DNA from: a virus
Lineage: Duplodnaviria > Caudoviricetes
Direction: 5' to 3' (one strand)
IMG/VR virus record: IMGVR_UViG_3300012979_000004
Span: 35,928-99,927 of that record
DNA length: 64,000 nucleotides
Within the stretch, counting starts at the first letter, position 1; every line of letters starts with the position of its first letter. The translations under genes were made by a program, and so were the position numbers. Below the pieces are notes generated by a model. That model was not told where the DNA came from. It saw nothing but the letters and a program-made list of their open reading frames with translations, and did not search any database. Below are positions 3,227 through 31,600 of this stretch, piece after piece.

Positions 3227-3298
3227 TTGGACATTCTGCTGGTAGAAGTAGTTAAATTTAATTTAACTATGATTGGTTCGACTCCGATCTGTCCAACA
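3227..3298 (+). ncRNA. Non-canonical tRNA-like RNA A (Gln-like acceptor, UUA at hairpin apex)
   Basis: Stem tggaca/tgtcca + A + CA; D-like arm ttct-GCTGGT-agaa; long hairpin gtagttaa-ATTTAAT-ttaactat; T arm gattgg-TTCGACT-ccgatc. Confidence 0.6.
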
Positions 3299-3348: not shown

Positions 3349-3708
3349 ATGAAAAAAACGGAATTACAATTATTACTAAAAGATCTTTGCGCAAGAGTAC
3401 CATATGGCGTAAAGTGCAATGTTGACGGCAGAATAAGACTGTTAACAGGTGTACAATCAGACGGAACATTAAAGTTTAAAAGTTCAAAATTATCATTTTC
3501 GATAAAAGAATGTTGTATAAAACCATATCTATATCCAATAAAAAATATGACAAAAATCGATTTTCTAAAATTTTGCTCTATAACAGCGGATGATACGATG
3601 TTGTTAGTGAAAAAACAAATTGATTTTTTGGAAGAGCACAATTATGATCACGGACATTTGATTGAACACGATTTGGCGATAGACGCTACAGGTTTAGATG
3701 TATACTAA
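3349..3708 (+). CDS. Hypothetical protein of a type common in Bacteroidota phages
   Basis: Motifs LLLKDLCARVPYGVK, IKPYLYP and LIEHDLAI; ends TAA. Confidence 0.75.
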   Translation: MKKTELQLLLKDLCARVPYGVKCNVDGRIRLLTGVQSDGTLKFKSSKLSFSIKECCIKPYLYPIKNMTKIDFLKFCSITADDTMLLVKKQIDFLEEHNYDHGHLIEHDLAIDATGLDVY

Positions 3709-3948: not shown

Positions 3949-5826
3949 ATGTGTATACGAAATTGTAGGATAGACGTCTATGATATAGAAGTTTTTCCAA
4001 ATGTATTTCACTGTTGTACAAAAAATACCGAAACTGGAGAAATAAGTAAATTTGAAATATCTGAAAGAAAAAATCAATTAGATGAATTGGTATCATATTT
4101 TACCAATAAAGAATCAAAGATAATCTGCGGATACAACAATCATCATTATGACGATGTTATAATAAATTATATAATAGATTATCATTCTAAACTAATTAGA
4201 TTGCCATACTGGAAGATATGTAAATCTTTATTCGGTTTATCACAAACTATTGTAACAGCAGAAGATGGAGACGTTGACAGATTTAAAAAATGGAAGTATG
4301 CGCATTACTTCTATTCTATAGATTTGTTAACTATGCAATTTAGTTCTAAATTACGAGTAGGTCTAAAAGAACTTCAATTAACCATGCATTATAAAAATGT
4401 GCAGGAATATGAAGGTGATTTTGAAAACAATCTTCCTACAAATGAAATAGACAAAATGATCGCATATAATATAAACGATGTAAATTCTACAACAGAGCTA
4501 TTAAACATTCTTAAAAAAGATATAGAATTACGTTTGTTTATATACGATGAATATCACATTGACGCATTGTCGATGGATAGTGTTAAGTTTGGAGAAAAAC
4601 TACTAGCAGAACGTTATTGTGAAAGCGCACGCATACCAATGCGATTGTTAAAGACAATGCGTTCACCAATGGACAATATCCCTTTAAAAGATGTTATATT
4701 TCCATTTATAGAATATAAAAATCCAAAATTAAAAGACGTTCTCGAAGATATGAAAAGGCAAATAGTATCTTCAAAAGAACGCAAAGGCTACGAGAAGAAG
4801 TTTGTTCTCTCGAACGTGGTGTATTCAATCGGAGTTGGTGGTATACATTCAATACACGATCCAGAAATATTCCATCCGGGACCTGACGAGTATATCGGAC
4901 ACAGTGATGTGGCGTCGATGTATCCGAGCTTACTGATAAAGTATGAACTTACTCCCAGACACTTAGGTAAAACATTTTTGAAAGTCTATTCTAAACTATA
5001 TGAAGAACGAATAGAAGCAAAACATAGCGGACAGAAACTTAAGAATCTTGCCTTAAAATTGACTCTTAACTCTGTTACGGGGAAAATGCAAGAAGAAACA
5101 AGTTGGATGTACGACCCATTTAACGTTTTCAAAATACGTATTAACGGACAGTTGATACTATTGATGTTGGTGGATCGTTTGCTGGAACTTAATTGTAAGA
5201 TTGTACAAGTAAATACAGATGGTGTTGTTTATATCGCTAAGAAAACCGCTTCTGAGGCCATTCAGGGGGCTATTTCAGAAGTAGAGCGTATAACACAACT
5301 TGTTTTTGAAAGCGACAACTATGAGGCGTTTTATCAATACGCAATCAACGATTATTTTGGAGTTGTTGAGGGTTATTCGCAATCTAATGACCCTAAATTG
5401 ATAGAAAAGAAAGGAATGTTTATCACTGAAACAAAAATAGGTAAAGGACTAGCACCGGTTATTATACCTAAAGCAGTGATTAATTATTTCTTAACAAAAC
5501 AGCCTGTATCTGAATATATCAGACAGCAGACCGATATAAAAGATTTCTTAATGGCACAAAGAGTCAATAAGAAATTCAAAGTCCGACACGGCAATCAATT
5601 TGTACAACGTATAAATCGATATTATGCTAGCACAAACGGTTATTCACTTTATAAAGTAGATTCAGACGGTAGTGAAACAAACATGTTAACTAAATCTGGA
5701 GTAACAATACTTAATAAAATGGACGACTTAAATATACAAGACAGGCATATAAATTATAACTATTATATAAGCGAAGCTAATAAGATAGTATATGATTTAG
5801 CTTGTCAACAATTAACTCTATTTTAA
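3949..5826 (+). CDS. polB: Family B DNA polymerase (crAss type)
   Basis: Exo I YDIEV, GYNNHHYD; polymerase motifs DVASMYPS, KLTLNSVTGK and NTDG. Confidence 0.93.
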   Translation: MCIRNCRIDVYDIEVFPNVFHCCTKNTETGEISKFEISERKNQLDELVSYFTNKESKIICGYNNHHYDDVIINYIIDYHSKLIRLPYWKICKSLFGLSQTIVTAEDGDVDRFKKWKYAHYFYSIDLLTMQFSSKLRVGLKELQLTMHYKNVQEYEGDFENNLPTNEIDKMIAYNINDVNSTTELLNILKKDIELRLFIYDEYHIDALSMDSVKFGEKLLAERYCESARIPMRLLKTMRSPMDNIPLKDVIFPFIEYKNPKLKDVLEDMKRQIVSSKERKGYEKKFVLSNVVYSIGVGGIHSIHDPEIFHPGPDEYIGHSDVASMYPSLLIKYELTPRHLGKTFLKVYSKLYEERIEAKHSGQKLKNLALKLTLNSVTGKMQEETSWMYDPFNVFKIRINGQLILLMLVDRLLELNCKIVQVNTDGVVYIAKKTASEAIQGAISEVERITQLVFESDNYEAFYQYAINDYFGVVEGYSQSNDPKLIEKKGMFITETKIGKGLAPVIIPKAVINYFLTKQPVSEYIRQQTDIKDFLMAQRVNKKFKVRHGNQFVQRINRYYASTNGYSLYKVDSDGSETNMLTKSGVTILNKMDDLNIQDRHINYNYYISEANKIVYDLACQQLTLF

Positions 5827-5857: not shown

Positions 5858-6421
5858 ATGATTATTGAAGTAAATACAAAACTCTTGCACATGCAAGAAA
5901 ACATCAATCTGAATCAACTATTCTTCTTAAGTACTGTATTGGATAAGAATCAAAAAACTAATCAAGACGTCCGCAAGATTGTCAGCCTAATTAGCGACGA
6001 CGAAATACAGTATTTAATAAATCAGAATCTAATCTCTTCAACTGTAGAAAGAGATGCTATTATATATCGGCCAACAGAAAAATTAACAAATTTCTTAAAG
6101 CCATCTAAGACTTATTTTGAAGTCTTTAAAGATATATACCCATCATATGTTACACGACCAGATGGTTCGAAAGGATACCTACAAACCAATATAAACAAAT
6201 GTCGTCATTTATTTGATCTGTATACAGGATTAAGTGAAGCGATGGCACAGCATTTAATTGATTGTCTTACATTTGAGATAAACAAGAAGATGAATACTGG
6301 TAAAATAGGATATATGAAAACTATGTATAAATGGTTAATAGAACATCAATGGGAAGAATCTGAAGCGGAAATGCAAGATGAAAGTAAAACAACATCAGCA
6401 TATGGAACAGAACTCGTTTAA
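5858..6421 (+). CDS. Replication-associated protein (possible helicase loader or initiator)
   Basis: Lies between polB and dnaB and overlaps the dnaB start; function inferred from context only. Confidence 0.6.
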   Translation: MIIEVNTKLLHMQENINLNQLFFLSTVLDKNQKTNQDVRKIVSLISDDEIQYLINQNLISSTVERDAIIYRPTEKLTNFLKPSKTYFEVFKDIYPSYVTRPDGSKGYLQTNINKCRHLFDLYTGLSEAMAQHLIDCLTFEINKKMNTGKIGYMKTMYKWLIEHQWEESEAEMQDESKTTSAYGTELV

Positions 6422-7325
6422 AATAAAATCTATGCGAGACGTGACTCAAGAAGCAATCTCGTATATAGCTGGAAGAAGAGAACATAATATAGTCTCTTTA
6501 AAGACCAGATGGAATAAGTTTAACAAACAGTGTATGGGAGGAATTGAACCAAATACTGTTTATACCATAGCAGGCATTTCTGGAAGCGGAAAGAGTTCTA
6601 TTGTAAACTCTATTCAAGTTGATTTAATTGATCTGAATCCTTCAGAAGAGATAATCATTTTATGTTTTTCATTAGAAATGGTTGGATTTAGGCAGGTCGG
6701 AAGAGTACTTTCTAACAGATTAAGAAAGACAACTTCTACCCTGTATAGTGCGGAAACGGACCTCGATGACAAGACATTTAAAGAAGTCATCTATGTATCC
6801 AATCAGCTAAAGGAATACCCAATCTACTTTGTAGACAATCCCGGTACTCCCAAGCAAACAGAAGAGATTATCAATAATTTCTATGAACAGTATGTAAAAA
6901 ATACAAACAAACATTTTGTAATCACATATGACCATACTCTTTTGACAAAACAAGTTGGATCTATTATAGAAACAATTAGTGAATTAGAACGAGTATTTAT
7001 ACAAGCCAAAAAATATCCTTTGACTTCAGTCATACAAATTGCACAAATGAACAGAAACATAGAGCAACCTGAACGGATTAACAACCCTTCGTCACACTAT
7101 CCTATGAGAAGTGACATAAGTTCATCAGACGCTGTGTTTCAAGGTAGCGATTACGTATTTGTAATACACAGACCAGAAACATTAGGTATTCAAGAATACG
7201 GACCAAGTCATTTGCCAACAGAAAACAAGGTTTATTTACACTTAATGAAAAACAGAGACGCAGGTAAACCTTGTATACTTGAATTCGAGAACGATCTTGC
7301 GTACAATAATATTATTGAAACATAA
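6402..7325 (+). CDS. dnaB: DnaB-like replicative helicase (ATPase domain only)
   Basis: Walker A AGISGSGKS, FSLEM, YDHTLL, IAQMNR, SDISSSDAVFQGSD, KNRD; start 6402 preferred over 6378. Confidence 0.9.
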   Translation: MEQNSFKIKSMRDVTQEAISYIAGRREHNIVSLKTRWNKFNKQCMGGIEPNTVYTIAGISGSGKSSIVNSIQVDLIDLNPSEEIIILCFSLEMVGFRQVGRVLSNRLRKTTSTLYSAETDLDDKTFKEVIYVSNQLKEYPIYFVDNPGTPKQTEEIINNFYEQYVKNTNKHFVITYDHTLLTKQVGSIIETISELERVFIQAKKYPLTSVIQIAQMNRNIEQPERINNPSSHYPMRSDISSSDAVFQGSDYVFVIHRPETLGIQEYGPSHLPTENKVYLHLMKNRDAGKPCILEFENDLAYNNIIET

Positions 7326-7868: not shown

Positions 7869-8612
7869 ATGATAGTACTACCTACATCTAAAGTCCAAGC
7901 AACTTCTACAAATCCGCAATATTTGATTTTATATGGATTGCCAAAAGCCGGTAAGACATCAGCAGTTGCGCAACTGGAAAATAATCTTATTGTAGACCTC
8001 GAAGGCGGATCCAAATTCATTGACGCACTTGCCGTACAAGCTCGTACAATCAACGATTTAGGAGAAATTGCACAAGCCATTAGAGCTAAGAATGCAGAAG
8101 TAGGACATAATTTTTATAAACACATTACAATAGACAATGCCACCAGATTAGAAGACATTTGTATGAGCTATGCATGTAGTTTGTATCGTAAAACTGAACT
8201 AGGGAAGAACTGGAAAGGAGACGATGTAACAACTCTTGCAAGAGGAGCTGGTTATAAATACCTAAGAGATGCCGTTAAAAAGGTAATCGACATGTTTAAA
8301 GAGCTTTGTGATGAATTCATCTTAATTGGACATGTTAAAGATTCTCTAACAGAAAAAGACGGACAAGAAGTTTCAGCAAAAGAAATAGACCTTGTTGGAA
8401 AACTAGGTAAAATCATTTGCGGAATGGCCGATGCTGTTGGATACGTCTATCGAAAAGACAACGAAACACATATTAGTTTTAAGTCTGGAGGAGATGGAAC
8501 AATCATGGAAGCCCGCGCAAGACATATTGCTGGACAAGATGTCGTTATTGCAACTGGAAACCCAGATGGATCTATAACAACTCATTGGGAACGTGTTTAT
8601 AAACCAGAATAA
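7869..8612 (+). CDS. AAA_24/Sak4-like ATPase (probable single-strand annealing recombinase)
   Basis: YGLPKAGKT Walker A, DLEGGS, ITIDNAT, ILIGHVK; adjacent to SSB as is typical for Sak4. Confidence 0.82.
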   Translation: MIVLPTSKVQATSTNPQYLILYGLPKAGKTSAVAQLENNLIVDLEGGSKFIDALAVQARTINDLGEIAQAIRAKNAEVGHNFYKHITIDNATRLEDICMSYACSLYRKTELGKNWKGDDVTTLARGAGYKYLRDAVKKVIDMFKELCDEFILIGHVKDSLTEKDGQEVSAKEIDLVGKLGKIICGMADAVGYVYRKDNETHISFKSGGDGTIMEARARHIAGQDVVIATGNPDGSITTHWERVYKPE

Positions 8613-9261: not shown

Positions 9262-9314
9262 CAATATTTCAGTAACGACTAATGGTCAGTGGTGGAGGAA
9301 TCTAGTGATTCCCT

Positions 9315-9361
9315 GGAGCATGTAAGGAACGTTGAGGGGTTCGATTCCCCTCCATGCTACA
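9315..9361 (+). ncRNA. tRNA-like minihelix B (acceptor + T arm only)
   Basis: agcatg/catgct + A + CA; T arm gagggg-TTCGATT-cccctc; an 11-nt linker replaces the D and anticodon arms. Confidence 0.55.
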
Positions 9362-9365
9362 AATA

Positions 9366-9471
9366 GCGGTGTCAGGATGTTGTGAAACATATGACAAGAT
9401 AGGTTTTCTAATTTCAGGCATTTTCGACTCATTTTTCCTATCTGTTTGGTTCGATTCCAAACGACCGCACA
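9366..9471 (+). ncRNA. Non-canonical tRNA-like RNA C with a 33-nt loop
   Basis: gcggt/accgc + A + CA; arm gtca..atgtt-gtga-aacat..tgac; stem agatagg/cctatct closing a 33-nt pyrimidine-rich loop; T arm gtttgg-TTCGATT-ccaaac. Confidence 0.55.
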
Positions 9472-9474
9472 ACA

Positions 9475-9660
9475 GTTACTTGAAGTGAGAAAGCCTTGGA
9501 AGACGTATAGTACGAGGTAAATAGAATAGTAACACTCCTTGGTAGACTCACTACGCGAAGGAGGGCGCAGGAAAGATACCTGCAACGAAAGAGTGCCAAA
9601 TAGATCAAATCTCTTTCACTCAGCACACAAGATAGGAGATGAACGCCCTTGCGTGTGCTG
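9475..9660 (+). ncRNA. Putative structured RNA upstream of the tRNA
   Basis: Pairings gttact/agtaac, cactc/gagtg, gtag/ctac, gcagg/cctgc, cagcacac/gtgtgctg; GC-richer than flanks; no credible ORF. Confidence 0.4.
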
Positions 9661-9665
9661 TTTAT

Positions 9666-9739
9666 GGACTTGTAGCTCAGTTGGTTAGAGCAACAGACTC
9701 ATAATCTGGAGGTCCCTGGTTCAAGCCCAGGCTGGTCCA
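9666..9739 (+). tRNA. tRNA with CAT anticodon (Ile2-like; Met not excluded)
   Basis: Full cloverleaf: GGACTTG acceptor, TAGCTCAGTTGGTTAGAGC D arm, cagaCT-CAT-AAtctg, T arm cctgg-TTCAAGC-ccagg; no encoded CCA. The GACTCATAATC arm and GCTCAG..TTAGAGC resemble tRNA-Ile2. Confidence 0.92.
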
Positions 9740-9768
9740 CAACTATAACAATAAAGAGCTATAAGCCT

Positions 9769-10746
9769 ATGTATAGTACAAAAACAGCGATCACAATGAG
9801 TCTGAAAGACTTATTAGAAAAAGTTGATGACTATGCAATATATTCCTACTATCTTGGAGAATTTAAGATAGGACAATTAATGAATAGTCCATTAAGATCT
9901 AACGATAAGATGCCATCTTTCGCTGTATTTAAAGGTAGAAATGGTGTATTGTTATTTAAAGATCATGGGACAGGAGAATATGGTAATGCTCTTAAATTCA
10001 TGAAATTGTATAAAGGAATACAAACAAGAGATGAATTAGAACGAGAACTGTTGCGCATCGTCCGAAAAATGAATCCTATGCGTGGTGAGGTAAAACCAAC
10101 ATACACGAAAACGGTGGATTTAGGGCCAACAGATATTGGAATAGTTCGTCAACCATTCACAGAAGTAGATAAAAGATATTGGAAGCAATTTCATATATCT
10201 TTAGACACTTTACGAAAGTTTAATGTTTTTAGTATAAAATACTTTCTTTGTAATAGAGTCGTCAGAGGAACCTACAAAGAAGCTAATCCTATGTATGCAT
10301 ATAAAGTGTATGATAAATTTAAAATATATCGTCCACTAGCCTCTAAGTATACTAAATGGCGTACCAATTTGACAAATAGGCACGTTCAGGGTTTAGCCGA
10401 GTTGCCTAAAGAGGGTGGTAATCTCTTAATCATTACGAAATCTTTAAAAGACGTAATGTGTTTATATGAGATGGGGTTTTATGCTATATCTCCTTCAAGT
10501 GAAACAACATTTATTCCAAATGATATATTACAATCACTAAAGAATAAATGGAAAAACATTGTTATACTGTTCGATAGAGATAAAACAGGAATGTTAAAGG
10601 CTAGAGAATATAGTAAACAGTATAAGTTTGATGCATTGTTTGTCAATAAGAAATTTAATGCAAAAGACATATCTGATGCAATTATGTATAACACATTCAT
10701 TCAAGTTAGAACCTGGATGATAAAAGAAACTGAAAAATATTTATGA
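9769..10746 (+). CDS. DNA primase (crAss-type DnaG/TOPRIM)
   Basis: SPLRSNDKMPSF, FKDHGTG, IITKSLKDVM and LFDRDKTG (TOPRIM DxD). Confidence 0.88.
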   Translation: MYSTKTAITMSLKDLLEKVDDYAIYSYYLGEFKIGQLMNSPLRSNDKMPSFAVFKGRNGVLLFKDHGTGEYGNALKFMKLYKGIQTRDELERELLRIVRKMNPMRGEVKPTYTKTVDLGPTDIGIVRQPFTEVDKRYWKQFHISLDTLRKFNVFSIKYFLCNRVVRGTYKEANPMYAYKVYDKFKIYRPLASKYTKWRTNLTNRHVQGLAELPKEGGNLLIITKSLKDVMCLYEMGFYAISPSSETTFIPNDILQSLKNKWKNIVILFDRDKTGMLKAREYSKQYKFDALFVNKKFNAKDISDAIMYNTFIQVRTWMIKETEKYL

Positions 10747-25600: not shown

Positions 25601-28600
25601 TCCACTATACGGCATTAGCGTTTCTTTCTGAATACCTTCTCTGAGATCGTCTCGTATTTCAGTAAGAAATGATGTATCGTTGTCAATGGAACCATTTAAA
25701 TCTTGGAACGAGTGATCAGAATCTTTAAGTACAGAAAGATATGCATTTATCAACCTGTTTGCATACCATTCATGAGTGCGCTCTTCAAAATCAACAGTTC
25801 CCTGTGGATTATAATATAATCTAGACAGGAACATCTTATCGATATCGTAGTCGGATCCAGTAATAGAGGTGATTGCTTTAGGCATTATGATAGTGTCTCT
25901 AATCACCGGAATCACATCTACACAACGCATAGCGTGGATAGAAGATACAGCCTGTGTTGGGATACGGTATCCTATTATATTTGCACTTGCGCCGGTACCA
26001 GGTATCGGTTTACCATCTTCATCATATTTAGGTCCGCCTATTATCTTATGATCAATGAGCCATTGACGTTGTTCTTCAAAAGACAAGCTGCTTACAGAAA
26101 CATATTCATCTGTTTCATATTCTTCTTCAACTTGAACGTCGTGTGTGCGCGTATAGTCTGTATGCGGTACGCCGTATTTTTCGTACGTGTCGTATTCTTT
26201 CTTGACTACTTTTCTTGTCTTCTTGATTTTTTTTCCAGTCTTTACCTTGGCTTTCTTAAGAATATCTTCAAAATAATCAATCGAAAGCACAACGTCCATA
26301 GAACCATCTTCATTCTTAACCTGTAACGGCTTTCCGTCATTTAACGACGGTGGTATATTTTCATCGCTGAGCACAGATACACCCTCCATACCCCAAGGAG
26401 ATCTTTGATAAAACGCCTTACCTGGTGTGTTCGTGTCTATCACACGCTTGTCTATCATAGACTTAATGATACTCTATATCCAATTCATTCCAGATAAAGC
26501 AGCCAAAGGAACTTTAAGTTGCCCGTTTTCAACGCTCACTGCGTCTATCATTTCTGCACTAGCCCCCCTGCCAACAAGCTCTTTTGTAAGAACGCTGCTG
26601 AACTTATTAACGTCAAACTAGCCATCGGTAAAAAACAATTCTTTAGTAATCTACATGCCGCTATCACTCATAGCGTTGAGACATTCCATGATCCTGTTTC
26701 TAACCTATGTTGCGCTCAGATTCTCTCCACCAACAACATATGTTCTACCAGGAACCAGTGTAGACAAAGCAACCTTTTTTGTTTGCGTACCGATAGACAT
26801 TTCTTCTTTATCTTTCGGATCGGTGTTAAATTGCTTGCGAAGATACTTGATTTTCTGTGTATATGTATTAAACTTAAGACTATCAATGTTGTTCCAATCT
26901 ACAGAAACAGAACCCTGTCCTCCTACTTTCACAGCAGAACGCATCATGATCATATCTATATGATTGTTTTGCATCTTTTGATAAAAATCTGCCAACGGTC
27001 CTGTTGCTATAGATTTGAATATTGGGAATAATGCGGTTTTGTTATAATAAGGAATATGTGTAATAGTTGTGTTTCCTTCAGCGTCTGTATGTTTGCGTTC
27101 TCTAAATCCAAATGCTGTGTATTTTTGTGCACCTATTACTGAAGTAAGCACAAGTTGATATGCTTTTGCCAACTCTCGAATATCTTTAGTAGTGTATACT
27201 TTGCCATCTACTTCTTTGCCGGTAAGTATGTCGAATGCTCGTTTCACATCACCGTTGAAAGATCCAGCCATTCTGAGAAGGTTTTCACACATCTATTCAG
27301 ATATATATGACGCACCGTCTGTTACGTTTATTTTCTTAAACGCGTTTACTTTTGAATTGACTGAGTTAGTAATGACAGTTTTTACAACATCATCAAAAGT
27401 ATTCCAAATGTCTTCGATTTCCATCTCATCCACCTCTTTTGACAACTGTTCGGCACGATCAACATCGTCGAAAGAAATACCTTCTTCAGCAATCCTGTTT
27501 TTCAGATAGGTATCACGAATAGTCCCTTCGTGTATAAGTTTATATAGTTCGTCGATATTATCCTCAGAAGCTTTTTCATCGTTGACTTCGGCGCAAACAT
27601 AATCTTCTTCTATCCCAGGTAAAATAACGTTGTTAAAACCAGTAGACACAAGACCTCCGAGTCGTTTAGATTGGTCGTCGGTTCTGTTGTAAAGATGACC
27701 ATTCTTGTCGTACTTAAAGCCGTAGAACGATGGGTGTCCGCTAAATACACGTTCGTACTCGTTCATAGATATGATTCCCTTTGCAACAACATCGCCGACA
27801 AGCATCATCAATGCGGTTCTACGTAGTTTATCTTGATCTCCGTTTGGATACTTTGCTGCAAGTACGCCATAAATAGAATCCAACTTTTTGTAATCCAGTC
27901 CGACGTTTTGGTATCTAAGCATGTTAGAATCTTGTTGGTTTTGTTTCCCCACATCCTGAATGATGCCTAGTTCGCATATATACTACAATTCTTTTTCGAC
28001 CTGTCTTAAAAGAATCTCATTTATCATGTTTCTCTATTCTTCAGGACTCTTGTCGAAGAAATATTCATGCGCGATTCTCTAGCACATTTGCTCATCCTGG
28101 TACACACCGTTTTCATCAAACAGCTTATTAAACTCTATGAACCTACCGTTATCCCACACGCCAAGCAGAGTACTAAACCTACCTCCTTGTTTTACAGTAT
28201 GTTTTATTTTTTCACCGTTTGGAAGAACTTCTTCTACTACTGCAGATTCGTCATAATTCTAAACGCGTTCTGAATCAGGAATAGACTCTGATAAGAATCT
28301 TGTTATCGATGCGTCTTCTGTCTTAGCATAAGCAATAAGTTGATCTAATACCTCATCATTAACAATTCTTCCCTTTTTCGAAGGCACTGTGTCTGGTAGC
28401 TTGTTAAAATCCAATCCTGGTAAGAAAAGGCCTTTTATATAACCCCAAGTCTTTTTGTCAGATTGTGTTGGGAATAACATTCTTCCTGATGACAATGCTG
28501 AGAATTTAGAAACATAGTCTTCTCTTGCACTCATATGTGCATAATCAACGTCTTCTACACCAGCATCACTACTACTAAAACCTATAAGAGTTGCTATTTC

Positions 28601-31600
28601 CAATTTACCTTTGTTTTTATCTACATGTTGAACAAGCAAACTTCCGTATGCAACACTTTCTCCAATCATTTGTTGTTCTACATTATAGATATATGGATTC
28701 GACTTCATCGAAGATAACACGGCTGGATCATTTTGAATTTCAAACAACCTATCGTTCAGGAAGTTGTTTTCGGACATAACGTAAAACGTTTTATTATTTG
28801 TTGTCAGGATAGACAGCTGATCAAACGAATGTCTATATTCGTACTTATAGTTGGCCAAGTTAGAAATAAAACCAATCTTTGTAAATACTTCAGATATACC
28901 CACATAAGCTCGCTGATTTGGCAACAGGACAGTTCCATTTGTGATATTAAGTTTTCCGTTGTAGTTAAGAGATGAAACAAAATCAAGGAATCCTTTAAAG
29001 CTTCCAAATCGCTAGTCTGTCAAGAATTCATATAAGCCTTTTGCCCCAACATCTTGATATCGCTGCAACAATGTGTAATCTAACGCATCTTTTTCGAAGT
29101 TTATTCCGAACCAACTAAGCGTACGAACTACGTAGTTTTTACACATTTCGACATGCTGTGCGTTGTTTAGATCGATCTGTACACCATTTAATTCAAATGG
29201 CTTCGGGCTTTGATTGTTCGGGCTAAGTGCCTACAACATACCATTTGCTCCAATAAACGAATCGACAATTGCTGTAAAAACATATGGGGACATCCCGTTT
29301 TTCATAACATAATCGCCTCTTTCGTTCTATTTGATAAAATAGCCAACACCGGCTGCAAGATTTTGCTACCAATCTTTAGTAAATTTTGTTGCAGCGTGCT
29401 GAGAACCAGACGACGTGATATATACAGTATATCCGTATTTGCTCTTTTTCATTTTAGCGATCTCAAACACGTTTTTATTTTGACGAACGGTTTGTGTAAT
29501 TTGAACTAATAGCTGTTCCGCATCGTAATCTACTGGAGTCCCGTTTGTCGGATCTACGGCATCCCATACTTTTTCAAAACGTCTAGAAATCACATTATAC
29601 ATATAGTTCTTTTCTCCAAGACGCTTGAGTTCTTTTCTTAGATCACTAACGCTAGATATTTCGTGTAAATCGTTCAGCATTCTAGCATAAACCTGTGCAG
29701 CAGGCATCAATTCTGGCAGACCGCAGTCGTTTAACCTAGGCACCTTTTTTCCGCCAGCGTTAAATGTATAGTCCGGTATTCCAGCGAAAAAGAATTTTAC
29801 CTTCTCACTAGCTCTATTAAACGGATTAAATTCATATGACGCCTTAATATGTCCATCCACCGCTTCAGCACCAGAGTTAGCAGGATCATCGTCATCAATT
29901 GTACTATCGGCATCGTCTGGTGTAGTTGGATCTGGAACAGCCGTGTCTAGTACAGAATGATTTGCTTCTTCATACTTAACTTTAAAATCGGTAGAGAACT
30001 ATGCAATATGACTAGCAATATCTGGCTAAACAACATCCCAGTTGTCCATCAATTCTTTTAACGCAGTCCTTGTTTCATACGGAATACGATACACAGGTGT
30101 TCCGTTCTTCATGCCAATCGGTTCCATCCACTGCTTCCAGATTGCAGATTTCATAGCCAACTCTTTGTCTACACTTAGTTCAGATATATTTGCTCCAGAC
30201 CATTCTATTCTTTGTGTAGATGGGTTCATAAACAAATATGTCAAACTTTTAACAAGAGTTCTATAGTGTCGTTCGTTAACAATATTTGGCAACTTCCTCT
30301 CACGTTTTGTAAAATTGAGCCCGTTTGCAGCAAATGCTTTGAATCGTTCTTGAGCCTCTTTTGTAGGCTATACATCCCTGAATTTACCTAAAGATGTTAC
30401 TGTATATAAGTAGAACAGTCTTAAGCTTCCAACGGATTTTAACATCTCTACCCAATCTTTAATTTGAGTATACATCTGTTTGAGATTGAACGTAAACTTA
30501 AACGTTGGCTTATTCATCATGAAGTACATAAAATTATCTGCCAACGCCTCGGCAACCTACTTGTCAGTAAGAGTCTTTCTACCTTTTTTGGCATTACGGT
30601 AAGCAGAATAAACCTTATCACGTTGTTTTGACGTAAGAAGTAATTCTACAACTCTATGGAACGCTTCGTGATATTCTACTCCAGATTCCGCTTTTCTAGA
30701 AAGGATTATAGAATCGCTATAACAACTACCTACAACAGAAGCTCCGCTACGCAACATTGCTATAACATCGTCTACGAATTCAATCTTTACTCCATTTGAC
30801 CCAAATATTTTCTCCAGACGGGCTCTTGCTTTCTGCTCACTGATTTTTTCACCATTTGACTACGTAGTAATACGCTTATCCATGCGTTCAACATCAAAGG
30901 CAAACGCATCATCGATTACGTCATCTATACCGTATGTTATGCCGTTGTTTTGTGCTTCTGTTACGGATACTTCCACTGGATTGTTTGTGACTTGTGCAGA
31001 AGTTGGTTCATCCACAGGAATGTCGTCAACGATTTTAACCTAAGCAGTATCATCAAAATTAAGCAGTGTGTTATCTACACCATCAAAACGTGTTTCTATA
31101 AATCCACGTTTCATGTACCATCCGAGTCCAGTTAAACCAAGCACGTCGTTTGGATTGGAAGGATCTTTAAAATCGTCTAAGTCAAATACAATACTACTGT
31201 TTCCAAACTAAATCTGCTTTTTTTGTCTCAACAACTATTGTCCTGACGGATTATTTAAAAACCCAAGAAGTTTACTAAACGGATTGTTTCTGTCTCGGCT
31301 ACCCAATCTATGTTGCATTACAACATCGCTTAGATTTCTACTAACGTTGTCCATAAGGAAATCCCTCAGCGCCTACTTTCCGCTTGGTGTATCTAAGTAA
31401 TACGTTCGTTCTGTCAAATCGTCTCCAGCAACTTTTCCAATAAGTTTTACTGCCTTTTTATGCAACTTATCGTATTCCACATGTAACATTTGTTTTCCGG
31501 TTTGCGGTCCAAATGGAATCAACAAACTTAAAACTTGATCGTTTGTAAGGCCGTATTGTATGTTGTTTTGTACAAATACCTAAGAGAGATCTGTAGAACC

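Follow-up and report, generated by a model that had tools for sequence, protein, structure and literature searches.

Evidence for a family of tRNA-like elements with a 12-bp acceptor/T helix in the replication module of a gut crAss-like phage

Genome and gene context

The replication module of a gut crAss-like phage contains, between its genes, short sequences that have the T arm and the 3' end of a tRNA but not its decoding arm. Are these tRNA genes in decay, or RNAs in their own right? Few viruses of the human and animal gut are as abundant as the crAss-like phages, and hardly any of the intergenic RNA of these phages has been annotated. The genome studied here (G000) comprises 99,927 bp, and the window is the stretch of 64,000 nucleotides formed by its bases 35928–99927; coordinates refer to the window unless given as genome positions. 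The genome is that of a Suoliviridae-type phage, its closest public relatives being Suoliviridae/Oafivirinae crAss-like phages from pig and human faeces. On the plus strand, positions 1–13.7 kb of the window hold the replication module, which uses the standard code and includes DUF1064 and AAA ATPase genes as well as the following:

3949–5826 (+), polB
6378–7325 (+), DnaB-like helicase
7869–8612 (+), AAA_24 protein
9666–9740 (+), tRNA-Met(CAT), canonical 7+5, with an A-CA tail (ARAGORN; Rfam 64.6 bits)
9769–10746 (+), primase

The 3' end of the tRNA-Met lies 29 nt upstream of the primase start codon at 9769. From 13700 to 64000 the minus strand, which carries the late genes, is coding only with TAG read-through: coding coverage rises from 0.49 to 0.986 when TAG is read through, and a frame of 6227 codons opens. 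This strand has 249 in-frame TAG codons, the true stops of its 43 late ORFs being TAA (33) and TGA (10). ARAGORN detected no tRNA with a CUA anticodon across the 99.9-kb genome, and the same gap, recoded Suoliviridae without a detectable suppressor tRNA, has been remarked elsewhere (bioRxiv 10.64898/2026.08.21.746148). The permuted tmRNA of the phage was located by ARAGORN at genome positions 29408–29717, 16 kb upstream.

Three tRNA-like elements

Three elements were delimited in the window:

9317–9361 (+), E1, a 42-nt tRNA minihelix followed by an A-CA tail (sequence, MFE fold)
9366–9471 (+), E2, a tRNA-like RNA with a four-way junction (fold, covariation, synteny)
3228–3298 (+), E3, a 68-nt tRNA-like element followed by A-CA (sequence, fold)

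Each has an exact GGTTCGAYTCC T arm, a coaxial acceptor stem and, 12 nt past the T loop, the sequence A-CA, a 3' end shared with the real tRNA-Met. An earlier note on this DNA had described three elements with a perfect T arm, a stacked acceptor and the A-CA of the tRNA-Met, and sequence and folding bear the description out; the '6+6' geometry that it gave to all of them (acceptor plus T stem) holds for E1 and E3 but not for E2, which is 5+6/7, and the wider family also includes 7+5 and 8+4 forms. None of the three has the connector nucleotides 8–9. The exact motif occurs at only 3 sites in the 64 kb, all of them intergenic and on the plus strand, and when up to one mismatch is allowed there are 5 matches against 0.74 expected.

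These elements escape standard annotation. ARAGORN and Rfam at its gathering score called only the tRNA-Met at 9666–9740 and missed E1, E2 and E3; an Rfam search was among the checks that the earlier note had proposed. In a permissive Rfam search (E up to 10), E2 and E3 matched no model of tRNA or of the tRNA clan, and E1 with its upstream flank matched tRNA-Sec at 21 bits, the gathering score being 47. A tRNA-Sec-like reading of 9288–9358 was rejected, given this low score and a pairing that is not kept in relatives. In none of the MFE structures is there an anticodon stem of 5 bp with a 7-nt loop; the D and anticodon domains have either given way to other sequence or been lost. The analysis supports the view that E1, E2 and E3 form a real family of tRNA mimics, with a 12-bp acceptor/T stack, a shifted junction and variable payload domains.

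E1 and the minihelix class

In E1, the acceptor strand AGCATG (9317–9322) pairs with CATGCT (9353–9358) and the T stem GAGGGG (9334–9339) with CCCCTC (9347–9352), enclosing the T loop TTCGATT (9340–9346; UUCGAUU in RNA). Between the two 5' strands lies an 11-nt, GG-containing linker (9323–9333), there is no anticodon arm, and the discriminator A9359 is followed by CA. The MFE structure is exactly the 6+6 minihelix (ensemble frequency 0.83, z −2.4).

Relatives retain this design. The orthologue of E1 in locus L121 (3337–3381) carries two compensatory T-stem changes, and in the closest relative (L004, at 2378) the slot of E1 is taken by a 61-nt version with an extra hairpin; among three copies of this 61-nt version there are compensating acceptor changes, and the sixth T-stem pair changes from G:C to A:U. 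Acceptors of E1 type covary as GGCATG, GGTATG and GGTGTG with matching 3' strands. Minihelices of 33–47 nt occur among the relatives in at least 8 independent, unrelated sequence lineages, and most of their linkers contain GG; their base pairs were counted by script, MAFFT having misaligned the 5' strands. E1 is thus a member of a recurrent class, and the GG of the linkers would fit a D-loop remnant touching the T loop. The most reduced form was seen at L064 2445–2487, where the linker is missing altogether and the 5' acceptor strand runs directly into the T stem, leaving a single hairpin of about 12 bp (two mismatches) capped by the T loop and followed by A-CG.

A further conserved segment abuts the 5' end of E1:

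9284–9316 (+), conserved 5' module consisting of GGTCAGTGGTGGAGG, a hairpin (9297–9312) and CCCTGG (alignment A2)

Its flanks are kept in 6 relatives, and the hairpin varies in sequence but still pairs. The module, a possible promoter, leader or protein site, precedes different tRNA look-alikes in L118, L121, L005, L044 and L064.

E2, a conserved RNA in the SSB-primase gap

The acceptor of E2 is formed by GCGGT (9366–9370) and ACCGC (9464–9468), and it has 5 bp rather than 6 because G9371 faces G9463. A D-arm-like hairpin (9371–9395) with an unpaired GG and a GUGA tetraloop is followed by a 7-bp stem (9397–9403/9437–9443) closing a 33-nt U-rich loop (9404–9436), then by the T arm (9444–9462; stem 9444–9449/9457–9462, with a T9443-G9463 wobble possible), the discriminator A9469 and CA. 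The fold has a z of −3.0, and none of 200 shuffled sequences folds as well.

Relatives of E2 were fetched from IMG/VR by the motif of the first hairpin, a choice independent of acceptor pairing, and 10 distinct members were obtained. RNAalifold folded them into a four-way junction with 27 pairs. Compensatory changes affect 12 of these pairs; the changes come mainly from a few clades and therefore represent few independent events. Over the alignment, 98.9% of the cells pair; none of 500 shuffles reached the observed pairing or covariation score, and pairing fell to 30–41% in slid-partner controls. Covariation, which the earlier note had proposed to look for among crAss-like relatives, is present in E2. 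Longer members have a seventh T-stem pair (U-A or C-G) and again a 5-bp acceptor. A covariance model derived from E2 (R1) scores true members at 50–120 bits and also matches E3 (23 bits) and other look-alikes at lower scores, but not the tRNA-Met.

Members of the E2 family are always found in the SSB-primase gap, even where the SSB is only about 60% identical to that of the window. Judged from sequence, E2 is a syntenic RNA gene between SSB and primase. Its first hairpin looks like a D arm, with a 4-bp stem, the unpaired GG and an inserted hairpin with a GNRA loop. In the second arm the stem is kept by covariation, and the loop in relatives keeps only its U-richness and a short AUUUUC-like core. 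Since the interior is under selection, E2 probably has an additional, trans-acting role, and the likeliest guess for the U-rich loop is a putative protein-binding site. The antisense role that the earlier note had suggested for the 33-nt loop found no backing among the phage's own translation start regions, where there was no significant match: the best duplex (−21.8 kcal/mol) was equalled by 19% of shuffled loops. A reading of the loop as an anticodon loop, or of E2 as an intron-bearing suppressor (UUCUAAU), was rejected as well, the CUA being absent from the closest homologue (L004/L250). An exact search of metagenome contigs, assemblies that rarely hold small RNAs, yielded no E2-type 3' end with CCA.

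E2 is followed by 194 nt of non-coding RNA, most of which belongs to another conserved element:

9475–9660 (+), conserved multi-hairpin RNA between E2 and tRNA-Met (BLAST, RNAalifold A5)

It is 76–78% identical to sequences in L005, L008 and L126 (BLAST), and RNAalifold gave 34 pairs, 12 of which show compensatory changes; it has no T arm and no Rfam match. With E1 and E2 only 6 nt apart, this RNA downstream and the conserved module 5' of E1, the SSB-primase gap is an RNA array delimited by tRNA-shaped units.

E3

In E3, TGGACA (3228–3233) and TGTCCA (3290–3295) form a 6-bp acceptor. Next come a hairpin (3234–3247), an AT-rich hairpin with UUA at its apex (3248–3270) and a T arm (3271–3289) with a 6-bp stem (GATTGG/CCGATC), and A3296 is followed by CA. 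There are no unpaired junction nucleotides, and the fold has a z of −3.6. The second hairpin has a 10-bp stem and a 3-nt loop in the MFE structure, an alternative with 6 bp and 7 nt being possible. R1 matches E3 over its full length (23 bits, E 0.011). Blastn against phage records and a look at 80 polB-anchored loci gave no sequence relatives, and none could be reached through the ORF upstream of E3, which has no relatives at all; the structure therefore rests on one sequence. The case for E3 would accordingly be built on its own predicted fold, its exact T loop and the architecture that it shares with the others.

A 12-bp helix with a sliding junction in relatives

About 260 related crAss-like loci from IMG/VR, anchored on homologues of primase, SSB and polB, were scanned by script, with a T-arm pattern that overlooks some variants, for example the UCCGAUU loop of L121. 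T-arm motifs next to an acceptor stem were abundant, and ARAGORN did not call most of them. Elements lay on the gene strand in 124 of 125 cases, and 83 of the 125 had the tail ACA. In the intergenic regions of the replication genes there were 196 distinct uncalled T-arm sites and 44 called tRNAs; look-alikes thus outnumber called tRNAs by about 4 to 1, and phage "tRNA counts" therefore understate the actual content. The first half of the crAss001 genome contains ordinary tRNAs almost exclusively, so the survey does not establish such abundance for Crassvirales as a whole.

The helix that continues the T stem was measured without presupposing 12 bp, shuffled upstream sequence serving as control. 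At the 196 uncalled sites, the total of acceptor and T helix peaks at 12 (80 observed, 20.7 expected), in line with the total of 12 bp and the shifted geometry that the earlier note had described for the three elements. A second peak at 13 (34 observed, 8.3 expected) suggests, from the tails, pairing of the discriminator by chance. The uncalled sites with a total of 12 are split as 6+6 (37), 7+5 (27), 5+7 (10), 8+4 (4) and 4+8 (2), whereas all 16 of the ARAGORN tRNAs with this total are 7+5. The total is therefore conserved, and the junction can move only in elements that no longer decode. This amounts to a natural experiment on tRNA recognition, in which selection holds the acceptor/T helix at 12 bp without decoding and only decoding tRNAs keep strictly to the 7/5 split.

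Position before primase and polB

A T-arm element, either a tRNA or a look-alike, ends 16–28 nt before the start codon at 48 of 65 distinct primase loci and 22 of 39 polB loci. In the window the slot before primase is filled by the tRNA-Met. Across relatives the slots before primase and polB contain tRNA-Leu, -Lys, -Trp, -Gln or -Met, or unrelated look-alikes, and their contents appear to be replaced in the manner of cassettes (L004-L083 at about 2950–2980, L163-L242 at about 2450–2480). The fixed spacing before start codons favours the reading of the elements as putative processing signals; the fixed position could instead mark a recombination hot spot at which cassettes are exchanged. E1, E2 and E3 themselves are not placed 16–28 nt before a start codon, E3 ending 52 nt before the ORF at 3349, and this counts against the processing reading.

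Proposed function

A tRNA is recognised by RNase P, RNase Z, the CCA-adding enzyme and EF-Tu through its acceptor/T helix and its elbow, not through its anticodon. The features kept in the elements are exactly those so recognised, and the elements would therefore act as handles for host maturation. On balance, and with moderate confidence, we regard E1–E3 as non-decoding tRNA-like RNA genes or transcript segments, phage "t-elements" that would act as processing handles. On this reading they are members of a large class that turns over quickly in Suoliviridae-type crAss-like phages. Since no tRNA-related enzyme gene was found among the ORFs neighbouring E1–E3, host enzymes would have to act on them.

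In the proposed mechanism, the elements would be co-transcribed with the early replication genes, RNase P would cut at their 5' ends, and RNase Z or exonucleases, followed by the CCA-adding enzyme, would finish the 3' ends, giving for example a CCA-matured end ...CATGCTACCA where the genome reads ...CATGCTACAA. The expected mature RNAs would start at 9317, 9366 and 3228 and have their genomic 3' ends at A9359, A9469 and A3296, respectively. The cuts would punctuate the early polycistronic RNA into mRNAs with short, defined leaders and would free the neighbouring non-coding RNAs, 9475–9660 being released if both flanking units were processed, and the excised look-alikes would persist as stable small RNAs. 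If the elements are such processing signals, they would represent gene expression by tRNA punctuation in a phage.

A pure processing signal, however, would not need the conserved interior of E2. A broader proposal, which we hold to be possible though doubtful, is that Crassvirales keep a large, rapidly diversifying set of anticodon-less 'tRNA-handle' RNAs, in which the 12-bp minihelix serves as a universal ticket to host processing, CCA addition and tRNA-binding proteins, and the payload or the minihelix itself acts in trans, e.g. as a decoy for a defence nuclease or as a translation regulator in TAG-recoded infection. Action in trans would add an RNA layer of counter-defence or translation control in stop-recoded phages that have no detectable suppressor tRNA, and if the 'tRNA-handle' reading is true, these RNAs would define a new class among the regulatory or counter-defence RNAs of phages.

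Alternative explanations

The alternative that survives best, though we consider it unlikely, is that the elements are putative trans-acting decoys or sponges: CCA-tailed minihelices would bind host factors that recognise the acceptor, T arm or CCA, shielding the real tRNAs during infection from defence enzymes that cleave or modify tRNA tails, or engaging tRNA-binding proteins. The portion of a tRNA that such enzymes grip is the only one conserved. An enzyme of this kind is Cas12a3, including a Bacteroidetes version: it binds tRNAs by T arm, acceptor stem and CCA tail, and truncated tRNAs are among the substrates that it cleaves (PMC12851939). The elements are moreover numerous, diverse and quick to turn over, like counter-defence genes, and they sit in the early region. 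Against this, decoys leave the strict spacing before start codons unexplained, and very high expression would be needed to compete stoichiometrically with the host tRNA pool.

That the elements are functionless, decaying pseudogenes left by a rapid turnover of tRNAs appears very improbable, although the same slots carry ordinary tRNAs (Leu, Lys, Trp, Gln, Met) in some relatives, E1 looks like what a deletion would leave of the 61-nt element that the closest relative has at the same place (L004 2378), and E3 is an orphan. Decay would not be expected to leave perfect, covarying stems and exact T loops, a helix total that stays at 12 while the junction moves, or a minihelix design that arose in at least 8 sequence lineages; nor would it account for E2 being retained at one locus although the SSB is only about 60% identical, or for 196 uncalled elements against 44 called tRNAs. 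The earlier note had argued against random tRNA decay, and covariation, synteny and recurrence in relatives uphold that argument. It had also foreseen that relatives might carry ordinary tRNAs at these loci, with the present elements as random deletions: ordinary tRNAs do occur in the relatives' slot before primase, but the look-alikes in that slot, being conserved and covarying, are not the random deletions in question.

It is hardly credible that the elements are non-canonical decoding tRNAs, E3 being a derived tRNA-Gln with the anticodon UUA that helps to read the TAG codons of the late genes. In its favour, the late strand with its 249 in-frame TAG codons requires read-through, and no CUA tRNA was found in the 99.9-kb genome; E3 also has U1:A72, G2:C71 and G3:C70 as in the phage tRNA-Gln genes of relatives, and a possible 7-nt loop, AUUUAAU. 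In the MFE structure, however, this loop is closed to 3 nt, the connector nucleotides 8–9 are missing, the variable region has only 2 nt, no tRNA model scores E3, and there are no relatives with a conserved anticodon. A UAA reader would furthermore be harmful, since TAA ends 33 of the 43 late ORFs. E1 is entirely without an anticodon arm, and the CUA in the loop of E2 is not conserved in the closest homologue.

A DNA-level role, as recombination or integration hot spots built on tRNA 3' halves, is barely plausible: tRNAs and look-alikes do swap at the same distance from primase and polB, but both acceptor strands are present and covary, which is an RNA-level constraint, the strand bias is 124/125, and no integrase is found among the neighbouring ORFs.

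Comparison with known systems

Possible counterparts in T4 are the species 1 and 2 RNAs (rnaC, rnaD), small and stable molecules with tRNA-like termini whose genes sit within a tRNA cluster and whose maturation goes along with that of the tRNAs. No 6+6 geometry or minihelix form is known to us in them, and host and phage lineage differ. The tRNA-like domain of tmRNA likewise consists of an acceptor and a T arm with a reduced D region and no anticodon arm, and the GG-containing linker of E1 resembles a D-loop remnant. Unlike tmRNA, however, E1 (C3:G70), E2 (G3:C70) and E3 (G3:C70) have no G3:U70, and there are no tag frame and no pseudoknots. Relatives have an ARAGORN "permuted tmRNA" beside tRNA-Met, and we considered whether E1–E3 are part of a tmRNA; this was rejected, the tmRNA of this genome lying 16 kb upstream and E1–E3 having neither G3:U70 nor a tag frame.

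The closest parallel to the processing reading is offered by the t-elements of plant mitochondria (Forner et al. 2007, PMC1920247), which were found by the same T-arm motif, GGTTCRANYCC, and direct cleavage by RNase P and RNase Z that makes mRNA ends; an excised t-element can be stable and receive C/A additions. Both groups combine a non-canonical fold with the T-arm motif and an acceptor-like stem. The t-elements lie in transcribed intergenic regions beside gene starts, and the phage elements in intergenic regions that are presumably transcribed, many of them beside gene starts. The phage elements differ in belonging to a phage of Bacteroidales and not to an organelle, in being far more numerous and diverse, in a junction that slides to 6+6 and 5+7, and in that some interiors (E2) are conserved. 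Allo-tRNAs (Mukai et al. 2017, PMC5389517), some of them from phages, have acceptor branches of 8/4 or 9/3; they retain anticodon arms and possibly a decoding function. They share with the phage elements a 12-bp acceptor/T branch whose split departs from 7/5, but their acceptor is longer and their T stem shorter, whereas the phage shift is the opposite (6/6, 5/7) and leaves no usable anticodon arm. Known non-7/5 tRNAs being 8/4 and 9/3 (PMC5389517), anticodon-less scaffolds with branches of 6/6 or 5/7 make up a new variant.

The mascRNA of MALAT1, the TMERs of gammaherpesviruses and the bacterial Y RNA YrlA (PMC4201824) are also tRNA mimics that serve as RNase P/Z handles or scaffolds, but those are eukaryotic or Ro60-dependent. 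E1 scored 15.7 bits with the Rfam model mascRNA-menRNA (threshold 42.5), and there was no match of Y-RNA type at E up to 10. In the literature we found no published description of such elements in crAss-like or other phages.

Other non-standard elements

A script scan of the whole genome revealed a further, clean 6/6 element at genome positions 29677–29734 and a weaker one near 27017. In Bacteroides phage crAss001 (L262, MH675552), the interval between the annotated tRNA-Lys and tRNA-Phe contains an unannotated 94-nt element (4141–4234, plus strand), in which a 7-bp acceptor and a T arm are combined with a long extra arm and an anticodon arm bearing GUA (Tyr); no D arm is evident. A 6+6 look-alike family, AATCAG...CTGATT, was noted in L008 (2635–2714), L023 (2738–2817), L024 (2267–2345), L048 (2907–2986) and L066 (2379–2457). 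Its members have a 3-bp D arm and a long hairpin always containing CTA (in the context CUCUAAA in L008), and they are candidates for an unusual amber reader in TAG-recoded phages, although the CTA mostly pairs with TAG in the stem. Outside the window, ARAGORN called a 'tRNA-Cys(aca)' on the minus strand (G000:C1:16766-16844) with an 8+5 acceptor/T stack; by hand reading its anticodon arm is irregular, and this sole tRNA-shaped element of the late strand is probably another non-standard element.
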